Position numbers: made by a program. Shown here piece after piece: positions 6,001 to 9,000 of a stretch of 38,874 nucleotides of DNA. The stretch lies in IMG/VR virus record IMGVR_UViG_637000107_000014, one strand, 5' to 3'. The stretch is from a virus (taxonomy: Duplodnaviria; Heunggongvirae; Uroviricota; Caudoviricetes). The first letter of the stretch is position 1. Every line of letters starts with the position of its first letter.

Positions 6001-9000
6001 AAACGTCAGCGTCTGGCCGTTCCATACCGGCATACAGCGCATCGCCGAGCAGAAATCACTGAGAACGTCCCACGCCTTACGCTGTTGTGACAGGTACGCA
6101 TTAAAGGTCATCCGCGGCTCTGTGCCCCCGAAACCATCAGGGACCATCTGGTCGCAGTACTGCGCAATGGCATACAGCGCCCACTTGTCCACATCCGCCG
6201 CCCCCAGGCGTTTTCCCATGCCGTAGCGCGGGTGAGTCAGCATGTCCCACAGGCACCAGGCCGGGTTGTTGCTGTATGCCGGTTTCAGGCTGCCGTCCCA
6301 GATGCCGCTGTACGTGCGTTTTTCCGGGTCATAGTTTGACGGCACCTGGATGATGCGACCGCGGATATGGTAGTTCACCGTCATCTGCTGACCGCCAAAC
6401 TGCTCCGCATCCACCTGCAGCCCCACAATGGCCGTGTTCGGGTAGCACTGTTTCACATCGATGATTTCGGTGTATGACGACCACAGCGTTCTGTTCTGCA
6501 GCTGGTCCGTGGTGCTGTCCGCCGTCTCCCTGACCATCCGGATGTTAAANGGCCGGGGCGGCAGATTATCCAGAATCACCGACGCCAGGAACTGCGAGGT
6601 GGTCTTGCCGTTAATGGTGACATCCTTTTCCGTCACCCAGTTACCGTTACGCTGCAACTGAATCAGCAGTCGGACAGAAGAGTGATTACGGTCGCCCTTT
6701 GAGGTGGTCTCCAACAGTGACTGCACCCCGAAGGTGACCCGCAGGCGGTCAATGTTCGCGGACGTAATGGTGCGCGTCACCGGCTTTGCCTTCGTCACTT
6801 CCACGCCCAGTGCGGTTTCAGCTCCGGAGGACTCAAAGCCTTCCGGTGGTGTCTGCTCCTGCTCCCCGGCACGCCAGACCGCAGTCACACCGTGTATCAC
6901 GGGATTACCGTCCGTGTCCGTCAGCGGGGTTTTGTTCACCAGAATACTCTGCAGCCCCTTCACCGGACCTTCAATCGGCCCTTCACCAATGGCGTCAATC
7001 ACGCTCATCATCTGCGTGGACTTAAGATTGTCCTTTGCCTCTACCGGCGTGTGCCCCTTGCCGCCCCCTTTACCCACTCTGTCCCCCTCTCCTGTCTGAT
7101 GTCTGAATCTGTTTATGCCAGAAAACAACAGGCACCCCGGAGGGTGCCTGTGTCATGACGGAATAAAATTTCTGAAACTCTTCACATTTCCGGCAATTGC
7201 CTGTAGCCGCAATAATGACGCTGCATTACTTTTTTGATGCCTGAAAAATAACTCCATAACGTTAATCTTCATCGTTCTCTCCCGCAGCTCCGCTAACTCT
7301 GCGGGATTTTTTTATTTTCATCCCCGCCCGATAACCACCACTTTCCCGTCTCCGCCCTCATCACGGGTGCTGATGTCCTGGGATATCCGTCGTGAACCAA
7401 CCAGCATTTCACCATAAGGCACCGGCATCGGGTTCCCCTGGGCAATCATGTTATCCAGTGACGAAAAATACGTGTTCTGTTTACCGTTATCCGTNGCNCN
7501 GTANTCCGGTGTTTTTGCCTTCGGTGCCAGCATCTGGGCCACACCGCCCAGTATCATGCTGGCNCCCAGTGANAACAGCATCGTGGTGGCAGAAAAACCA
7601 CCGGCTGNCAGGGCTGAACCCCATAACGCCATTGATGCCCCGGCCGTGAAGAAAGAGCCCACGATGGCTGCCGCCCCCAGCACAATCTGCAGTCCACCCT
7701 TTCCGGCNCCGGCCAGTCGCGGCACAATATGGATGACCGNNCCCTCACCCAGANGTTCGTGAAGACGGGCGTACACCGCCTCCGGTGCCGTGTCNTCACC
7801 GGGAATACGTATCTGGTACCAGCCTTCGTTCATCTGACGGCGGAATCCCGGCATCTGCAGCGACAGGGCACGGATGGCTTCCGCTGCCGTGTTCACNTAC
7901 AGGCTGAGGCGGCGGCCAAATCGTTGCAAATCCCCGTGAAGGCAGATGCGTGCCAGTGGCGGTGACGCCAGACAGAATGCGTTCGTCGTTGCCATTTTTC
8001 AGAATACCTCTCCCGTTTACTCAGTTGTTCAGGCAGATGGTGAAGCAGTTCACCGTTGCCGCAGTATATGGCGGCATGATTGGCCACCGATGCGCCAAAG
8101 CAGCACAGCAGGATATCGCCCGCCTGTGCAGAGGACAGGGGCACCCGGTAAAAACCAGTCGCCGCCATATTGTCCAGGTAAAGGTTCTGACCGTTGCGCC
8201 ACCAGTCATCCTCACGCTCAAAATCCGGCAGCGTTATCCCCGCCAGATGGTATGCATCCCGGAACAGGGTGTAACAGTCCGTCACCCCGTGCTCAAAACG
8301 ACGCCCGGTCAGGTGCGGCACACAGCGGAATTTATGAATTTCCCCCCGGCAGACCAGCCACCAGGGCAGGGCACTCTTTATCTGCAGCCGCCGGTCGGCC
8401 TCGCTCAGCCAGGGCAGACCACCAGGGTGGCTGTGAACCAGCGCCACAATCTCCCCCTGCATCTCTGCCTGCAGCCAGTCTTCCGGCGCAATACGAAAAT
8501 ACGCCTCCGGCTCTGCGGAGATATTCACGCAGGGCTGGTACCGTTCGCCCTCCGGGGTGCCTATCACGAAGCCGCACGACTCCGCAGGCGCACACCGCCG
8601 GGCATGCACCAGAATCGCTGATTCAGTCTGTGTCATAAAACAGGATTTACTGCGAAAGTTTATTGATGGAAAGGAAACCGCCAAAATTAGCCACCATGCC
8701 GCGCATCTCACACCCGCGCATGCACTTGCTGCATCTGTCCTTACGGATATCCGTGGTGGGGTTGTCGAACTCATCCGCCACCGCAGGACCGTTATACCCG
8801 CATTCATCTCCCCGGTAATCCCACATACAGGTATTCGCCAGCATAATGCGACCGGGAAACAGCGCTCCGTCCGTCTCCGTCGGTGTTGCCAGCACAAACG
8901 AGGCTGTCATGGCCGTCAGCTCTGACATCTGCTCCACCACCCAGCGGTCGCTCAGCTCCTGCTCCGGGTCCGCTTCCGGATTGCCCGCCACAAAATTCAC

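Follow-up and report, generated by a model that had tools for sequence, protein, structure and literature searches.

A Probable Small RNA Gene of the PasB/EcOnc22–24 Family in the I–J Tail Gene Spacer of a Lambdoid Prophage

What is carried by the spacer between tail genes I and J in the virus sequence IMGVR_UViG_637000107_000014, a 38,874-nucleotide stretch of Caudoviricetes DNA that is called the window throughout? An earlier note on this DNA had proposed a moron-like independent cassette, namely a 39-codon open reading frame (ORF) bracketed by terminators, or else an attenuator controlling J expression. The spacer is very probably best explained by a plus-strand small RNA (sRNA) of the PasB/EcOnc22–24 family, together with a separate minus-strand hairpin and an ORF that is a by-product of the sRNA sequence.

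Limits of the I–J Spacer

In the window, the tail genes I and J are encoded by the minus strand. Tail assembly gene I is the ORF at 7318–7995, with its stop codon at 7318–7320, and J starts at a GTG codon (7077–7075) preceded by the ribosome-binding site (RBS) GGAGAGGGGGAC, the site and the start codon together occupying 7075–7091, and encodes a protein beginning VGKGGGKGHTPVEAKDNLKST. These ends were obtained by translation and are confirmed by RefSeq, which annotates the identical DNA of EDL933 and Sakai in the same way. Between them the spacer measures 240 bp (7078–7317) and not the roughly 190 bp given previously; nor do I and J normally abut, as had been assumed, since in lambda they are separated by 60 bp that contain a tail-sense hairpin and T-run of their own. 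A 301-base stretch around the spacer has exact (100%) matches in phage VT1-Sakai, CP-1639, EDL933 and hundreds of other genomes from Escherichia coli strains that produce Shiga toxin, and related forms of the spacer with 79–88% identity are found in 802 of 5426 complete E. coli genomes. No ambiguous base (N) occurs within 7078–7317.

The Plus-Strand Small RNA

The spacer of the window is identical to those of the Sakai prophages Sp15, Sp14 and Sp11, which are the loci of EcOnc22, EcOnc23 and EcOnc24. These three have been reported as homologous Hfq-crosslinked RNAs, all on the plus strand, which give a Northern band of about 85 nt and are destabilised in an hfq deletion (Tree et al. 2014, Table S2, PMC4104026). 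The Northern probe for EcOnc22/23/24, which begins GGGAGAGAACGATGAAGATTAAC, matches the minus strand of the window exactly over its first 23 nt (7283–7261) and matches nowhere else, so that it detects a plus-strand RNA covering the start of the 39-codon ORF. The likeness thus extends to identical DNA, the same I–J spacers, the plus strand and the presence of the probe sequence, with no sequence difference; it is the surrounding prophage that differs, the head-gene block and the IS629 position of the window not being those of Sp14.

The strand and place of EcOnc22/23/24 are settled because the probe sequence matches the window. The Sakai coordinates in Table S2 (2014, PMC4104026) are offset by about 128–143 bp from NC_002695.2, as calibrated with AgvB1, and the three EcOnc peaks stand at one constant offset from the three Sakai J starts. 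Read directly on the current Sakai record, the EcOnc22 peak (2902714–2902774) would fall on window positions 7101–7161, where there is no plus-strand terminator, and this placement was rejected because the coordinates are shifted. The 2014 offset can put EcOnc peaks on the wrong feature.

The sRNA PasB of enteropathogenic E. coli (EPEC) E2348/69 is 83 nt long and has been mapped by RNA-seq and Northern blotting; its gene is found between the homologues of I and J in antisense orientation, with the 3′ end 6 nt from the I stop, its level drops by 6.8 and 2.4 log2 units without hfq, and it takes part in 37 interactions detected by RIL-seq, which ligates and sequences interacting RNAs (Pearl Mizrahi et al. 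2021, PMC8550237). Aligned to window positions 7238–7313, PasB is identical at 63 of the 76 ungapped positions (83%), and its Northern probe matches the terminator of the window at 20 of 23 positions, the mismatches being confined to the loop. The two loci agree in I–J position, antisense orientation and spacing and have in common the CRP-like site, the terminator stem and UUAAUCUUC as the seed block, and they differ in that the window RNA is 7 nt shorter, has another terminator loop and has AATAAT in place of the EPEC TATAAT. On the PasB alignment and the identity of the spacer to the Sakai loci, the sRNA is placed at 7238–7313 on the plus strand, antisense to the tail operon, with a putative 5′ end that could lie as far upstream as about 7223. 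Judging from the published work on the identical (Sakai) or homologous (EPEC) loci, it is probably an Hfq-dependent, trans-acting RNA of about 75–90 nt.

Transcription from the plus strand would end at an intrinsic terminator at 7280–7313, 4 nt short of the I stop codon. A hairpin with a T-run had been noticed here before, on the plus strand and so antisense to the tail operon, and both are indeed present: an eight-pair stem (7280–7287/7299–7306) with an 11-nt loop is followed by seven U (7307–7313), and this structure folds at −13.2 kcal/mol (z = −4.06), with none of 200 shuffles folding as well. Across the relatives the stem CCCGCAG/CUGCGGG is unchanged, while the loop varies. A scan of 6500–8000 for terminators found four sites against 1.7 expected, a count that is weak by itself; the two hairpins of the spacer stand out by their stability and conservation, not by the number of terminators.

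Just upstream of the terminator, the conservation profile of 57 unique variants points to a probable single-stranded seed, CUCCAUAACGUUAAUCUUCAU (7252–7272, plus strand), and its core UUAAUCUUC (7262–7270) is the most conserved stretch of the sRNA body. The position of this core agrees with the seed proposed for PasB, which was likewise placed immediately before the terminator (Zhu, Shabalina and Storz 2026 preprint). By pairing of this seed with other RNAs the sRNA would act in trans, as the literature shows for identical or homologous loci. In the minimum-energy fold of the window RNA, two parts of the seed (7252–7255 and 7264–7271) are drawn into short weak helices.

That the spacer holds no gene at all, being merely two terminators placed back to back as insulation between I and J, might be suggested by the two strong hairpins on opposite strands and by the lack of an Rfam family; this is extremely improbable in view of the Northern and Hfq-crosslinking data published for the identical sequence, the RNA-seq, Northern and RIL-seq support for PasB, and the conserved blocks that stand between the hairpins in a promoter-like arrangement. 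An identity with the anti-sRNAs AgvB or AsxR was considered and rejected. These are short, Hfq-dependent RNAs with conserved 3′ ends and variable 5′ parts, located at the PR′ moron site of prophages of enterohaemorrhagic E. coli (EHEC), and they resemble the window sRNA in being non-coding sRNA cargo at a conserved moron site of lambdoid prophages; their site, however, lies downstream of Q/PR′, they have no sequence similarity to the window sRNA, and no Rfam AgvB or AsxR hit was obtained here.

Judged by sequence, PasB and EcOnc22–24 are one family for which two published names are in use, a link stated in neither the PasB paper (PMC8550237) nor the 2026 PasB preprint. The cargo of the I–J spacer is in this sense a known sRNA already detected by two laboratories, which is little new by itself. 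The targets of EcOnc22 were given as unknown in a 2021 review.

The 39-Codon Reading Frame

The small ORF (7272–7153, minus strand; peptide MKINVMELFFRHQKSNAASLLRLQAIAGNVKSFRNFIPS) exists as described in the earlier note and is preceded by GGGAGAG, but it is judged not to be a gene. For the comparison of relatives, 89 unique spacer variants were collected, the sources being phage contigs of IMG/VR and public records of phages and genomes. The homologous start codon is ATG in 50 of these, ACG in 26, ACA in 11 and AAA in one, with a gap in the remaining one, and the length of the frame ranges from 5 to 56 codons with frame-shifted C-termini, the frame of E2348/69 ending after 22 codons; neither start nor length is conserved. 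A search of the product against Pfam, which did not extend to the large protein databases, gave no match at E ≤ 0.01. The unconserved start and length, together with the lack of a Pfam match, indicate that the small ORF is not the cargo.

The features by which the ORF resembles a gene coincide with parts of the sRNA. Its conserved “MKIN” codons coincide with the seed core UUAAUCUUC, its “Shine–Dalgarno” corresponds, on the opposite strand, to the 3′ arm of the sRNA terminator, and the complement of the seed reads as “SD + ATG AAG ATT AAC”. The ORF is therefore a by-product, in that a C/U-rich sRNA resembling an anti-ribosome-binding site reads on its complement as a Shine–Dalgarno sequence followed by ATG, and this ORF illustrates how the complement of such an sRNA can mimic a gene.

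Two explanations would nevertheless give the ORF a function. In the first, it is the real gene of a protein-coding moron, its promoter or insulator being the hairpin region upstream and its terminator the minus-strand hairpin. The ORF, the Shine–Dalgarno-like GGGAGAG and a tail-sense terminator downstream are all there, and the first four codons, MKIN, are well conserved; yet ACG or ACA replaces the start in 37 of the 89 variants as against ATG in 50, the frames vary from 5 to 56 codons with frameshifts and stop at 22 codons in E2348/69, there is no Pfam match, the conserved 5′ codons are those of the sRNA seed, and the promoter scan found no promoter-like site on the minus strand, all of which makes a coding moron highly improbable. 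In the second, the ORF is the toxin of a type I toxin–antitoxin pair whose translation start is covered by the antisense sRNA. Such a pair would have the geometry seen here, with the sRNA fully complementary to the ORF from the Shine–Dalgarno sequence and the start codon up to codon 11, yet the explanation is hardly credible, as the unconserved ORF encodes a basic and polar peptide without a hydrophobic membrane segment, the 37 RIL-seq interactions of PasB are the behaviour of a trans-acting Hfq sRNA, and a genuine hok/sok locus is present elsewhere in the window.

The Minus-Strand Hairpin Upstream of J

The minus-strand hairpin with a U-run, which had been reported about 50 nt before J, was also recovered. 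It has the form CAGGCACCC-UCCG-GGGUGCCUG UUGUUUUCU (7120–7151, minus strand) and resembles an intrinsic terminator, with a hairpin of ten pairs, seven of them G–C, at 7151–7128 and a tail UGUUUUCU reaching to 7120, 43 nt before J. Its folding energy is −23.1 kcal/mol (z = −5.29; equalled by 0 of 200 shuffles). In 19 distinct variants taken together, 98.9% of the stem cells are paired, against 32–49% in slid controls; one stem pair changes from C–G to U–A in six variants, which is compensatory, nine further stem cells are G–U wobbles that pair on the tail-sense strand only, and the U-run is retained in all variants. Moreover, the hairpin is single in each spacer and adjoins J, whatever the number of sRNA modules.

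A counterpart is found in lambda, whose 60-bp I–J spacer carries a tail-sense hairpin and T-run, AAACCGCC-tgcg-GGCGGTTTTGTCATTT (z = −3.37), just before the J RBS. Both are tail-sense, G+C-rich hairpins that lead into a U-rich run and directly precede the J RBS, whereas the stem sequences differ and the lambda spacer holds the hairpin only, with no antisense sRNA module. The lambda hairpin lies at 160–195 of L136, which corresponds to lambda 15459–15494, and the record has no feature annotated there. The minus-strand hairpin would thus be an older element of the I–J junction that appears to have been selected as RNA structure on the strand of the tail operon. Since the plus-strand hairpin is the sRNA terminator, and the minus-strand hairpin is separate, linked to J, present once per spacer and matched in lambda, the two do not bracket one unit, and the description of the ORF as bracketed by terminators is not upheld.

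In lambda, polymerase modified by Q is expected to ignore intrinsic terminators. By analogy, the minus-strand hairpin may, just before J, stop or stabilise tail-sense transcripts lacking antitermination and would be read through by Q-modified polymerase during lytic growth; the attenuator role proposed for J is possible for this hairpin only.

A broader role in cis could be imagined, in which the antisense sRNA, the minus-strand hairpin or both mainly set the expression of J, through pairing with the late mRNA and RNase III cleavage, through transcriptional interference or through attenuation before J, resembling the action of lambda OOP on cII. OOP is a short terminator-ended phage RNA that is antisense to an operon, overlaps the cII coding region and acts in cis; the window RNA is likewise short, terminator-ended and antisense, but lies wholly within the spacer and belongs to a family with trans partners. 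Perfect complementarity of the sRNA to 75–90 nt of the late transcript between I and J speaks for control of J, as does a strong terminator-like hairpin under structural selection 43 nt before the gene, of which lambda keeps a similar one without the sRNA. In the EPEC data, however, the sRNA is abundant in lysogens (baseMean 482–1082) while the tail genes are nearly silent (5–15); the sRNA family engages trans targets in RIL-seq, up to four stacked modules with different seeds are hard to explain by control of J, and Q-modified polymerase would be expected to pass intrinsic terminators. Control in cis as the main function is thus unlikely, and a purely cis role fits poorly, while an effect on J is possible as a secondary function of the trans-acting sRNA.

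A second, tail-sense sRNA ending at 7120 has a low probability. No such RNA is listed in the Table S2 obtained by crosslinking and analysis of cDNA (CRAC; PMC4104026) or in the available part of the EPEC tables, both of which would tend to miss it, the CRAC list having required a distance of >100 bp from any coding region, by which a tail-sense RNA near J would be filtered out. Between the hairpin and the J start, the J leader contains the heptamer CAGACAT (7093–7106, minus strand), which is present in one to three tandem copies among relatives (J leaders of L026, L032 and L099).

Promoter and CRP-Like Site of the Small RNA

The promoter of the sRNA would span 7171–7232, with transcription starting near 7238–7240, or near 7223 with later processing. 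The favoured −10 element is the putative TACTTT box at 7227–7232 (plus strand), which lies 6 nt upstream of the position aligned to the mapped 5′ end of PasB; of 79 unique modules, 75 have a TAnnnT at this constant spacing from the CRP-like site. An alternative is AATAAT at 7211–7216 (plus strand; TATAAT in E2348/69), an nAnnnT box kept in 71 of the 79 modules. A start from this box would give a transcript of about 91 nt from near 7223, which would need processing to match the PasB 5′ end. As a first choice it was demoted, being 22 nt from the mapped PasB 5′ end and leaving the CRP-like site out of phase.

The block with the highest conservation in a BLAST-derived alignment of the spacer reads AAATGTGA-AGAGTT-TCAGAAAT on the tail-sense strand. 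It forms a CRP-like palindrome at 7171–7186 (either strand; centre 7178.5), with TCTGA-AACTCT-TCACA on the plus strand and TGTGA-N6-TCAGA in the tail sense, and matches TGTGA-N6-TCACA at 9 of 10 positions, which equals the lac site in quality. Among the BLAST-derived variants and the 79 modules no half-site varies and changes are confined to the centre of N6, a pattern that is as predicted for a CRP site. The block occurs at a fixed distance in 62 of 67 unique spacers, a sample that was anchored on the sRNA terminator and is thereby unbiased for the CRP-like block, and in arrays it is duplicated along with every sRNA module. A reading of the block as a weak 4-bp hairpin, UGAA-N4-UUCA, was rejected, the stem being AU-rich and lost in some N6 variants.

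If transcription starts at G7239, as the TACTTT box and the PasB 5′ end suggest, the centre of the palindrome is at −60.5, close to the class I position of about −61.5; with the AATAAT box it would be at about −44.5, which fits no class. Bound at this putative site, CRP with cyclic AMP (cAMP–CRP) would activate the sRNA promoter in a class-I-like geometry. Spot 42 is an sRNA repressed by cAMP–CRP. In the EPEC study, PasB was higher in overnight lysogeny broth (LB) than in Dulbecco-modified Eagle medium (DMEM), while Spot 42 was about five-fold higher in DMEM (PMC8550237), a pattern that fits activation of PasB by CRP as circumstantial evidence. No description of a promoter for PasB was found in the literature searched. 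The conserved CRP-like site offers a testable idea on when the prophage sRNAs are made, the EHEC targets of which are listed as unknown.

Several points weigh against the identification of the sRNA or against this account of its promoter. No Rfam family covers the spacer at gathering or permissive thresholds, and the support for expression comes from published work on identical (Sakai) or 83%-identical (EPEC) loci, not on the window itself. The Northern size of about 85 nt in Sakai fits poorly both 75 nt (from 7239) and 91 nt (from 7223). A scan of 6500–8000 with the sigma-70 consensus returned no promoter, so that the promoter is weak by sequence, and both −10 candidates are conserved, AATAAT being the better −10 match. 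CRP core matches of 9/10 are not rare alone, with two in the window against 1.27 expected, and higher PasB in overnight LB could equally reflect stationary phase.

The I–J Junction as a Cargo Site

Compared with lambda, the insert of the window is the I-proximal part of the spacer, about 180 bp, which consists of the sRNA gene and its putative promoter. The idea of a moron-like independent cassette is therefore borne out as far as the extra DNA and the other cargo of relatives are concerned, with an sRNA and not the ORF as the cargo, and the earlier observation had correctly located a non-coding cargo site inside a phage structural operon.

In some phage contigs, the spacers are about 440, 730 or 930 bp long and hold two, three or four head-to-tail sRNA modules, respectively. 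Every module comes with an antisense terminator of its own, a body whose seed has diverged (UUAAUCUUC, GUUAGUCAAC or GGUGACUAUUCG), a GTTAC...T box and a CRP-like site. All modules are antisense to the tail operon and unannotated in RefSeq, and they have no Rfam match. Such arrays are carried by L050 (about 325–1250), L092 and L017, as well as by E. coli O91:H21 FWSEC0008 (L195, 891–1800), whose unannotated I–J spacer measures 910 bp; one paralogous module is found in 78 of the 5426 complete genomes. Other relatives carry sodC, the gene of a Cu,Zn superoxide dismutase, in the I–J spacer (Pfam Sod_Cu, E = 3.9e-32), antisense to the tail genes, in spacers of about 870 bp (L161, 2646–3561; also L138, L159, L173 and L183). 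A truncated PasB-like body and terminator follow downstream of sodC, as though sodC used the end of the sRNA for its own 3′ end. These sodC morons share the insertion site and the antisense orientation with the window sRNA, and some of them the PasB-type terminator after sodC, but they are protein-coding (about 175 residues), and sodC is absent from the window.

With its tandem sRNA arrays and sodC variants, the I–J junction stands out as a recurrent landing site for antisense cargo. We regard as possible, though rather doubtful, the wider proposal that the I–J spacer is a dedicated cassette site for PasB-like sRNA genes under CRP class I control, the seeds of which diversify in arrays of two to four modules, with the window as the one-module form. 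The arrays themselves are observed; expression of every module, control by CRP and distinct targets of the paralogues are hypothetical. No description of the sRNA arrays was found in the literature searched, and together with the CRP-like site, for which no prior description was found either, they are to be taken as leads. Among species-representative genomes, a scan gave only two contigs, 460 and 546 bp long and belonging to unrelated taxa; these are probably contaminants, and the scan is uninformative on the wider distribution.

The Surrounding Prophage

The window is a TccP-carrying lambdoid prophage of the Sp14/CP-933U type. The type is identified by TccP/EspFU at its left end, where the plus-strand ORF at 1–1155, with 6.3 copies of a 141-bp unit (94% matches; repeat at 253–1134), corresponds to the type III effector of Sakai Sp14. 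Both ends of the window match Sp14, with 98.5% identity over 369–10810 and 99.8% over 26407–38874, whereas the head-gene block between them (about 10.8–26.4 kb) is unlike Sp14. Within the head-gene region there is a copy of IS629 (IS3 family; 16724–18034) with an ALIL pseudoknot at 17059–17175, at a position that differs from that in Sakai Sp14. Ambiguous bases (N) occur at 66 positions of the window, clustered at 0–2 kb, 7.4–7.8 kb and 27 kb, and 13 of them are within gene I. In addition, Rfam places other non-coding RNA genes on the minus strand at 28410–28582, 29356–29602 and 32518–32692, namely STnc100, reportedly a relative of PasD, three tRNAs that lie downstream of Q, and the sok antitoxin RNA of the hok/sok locus.

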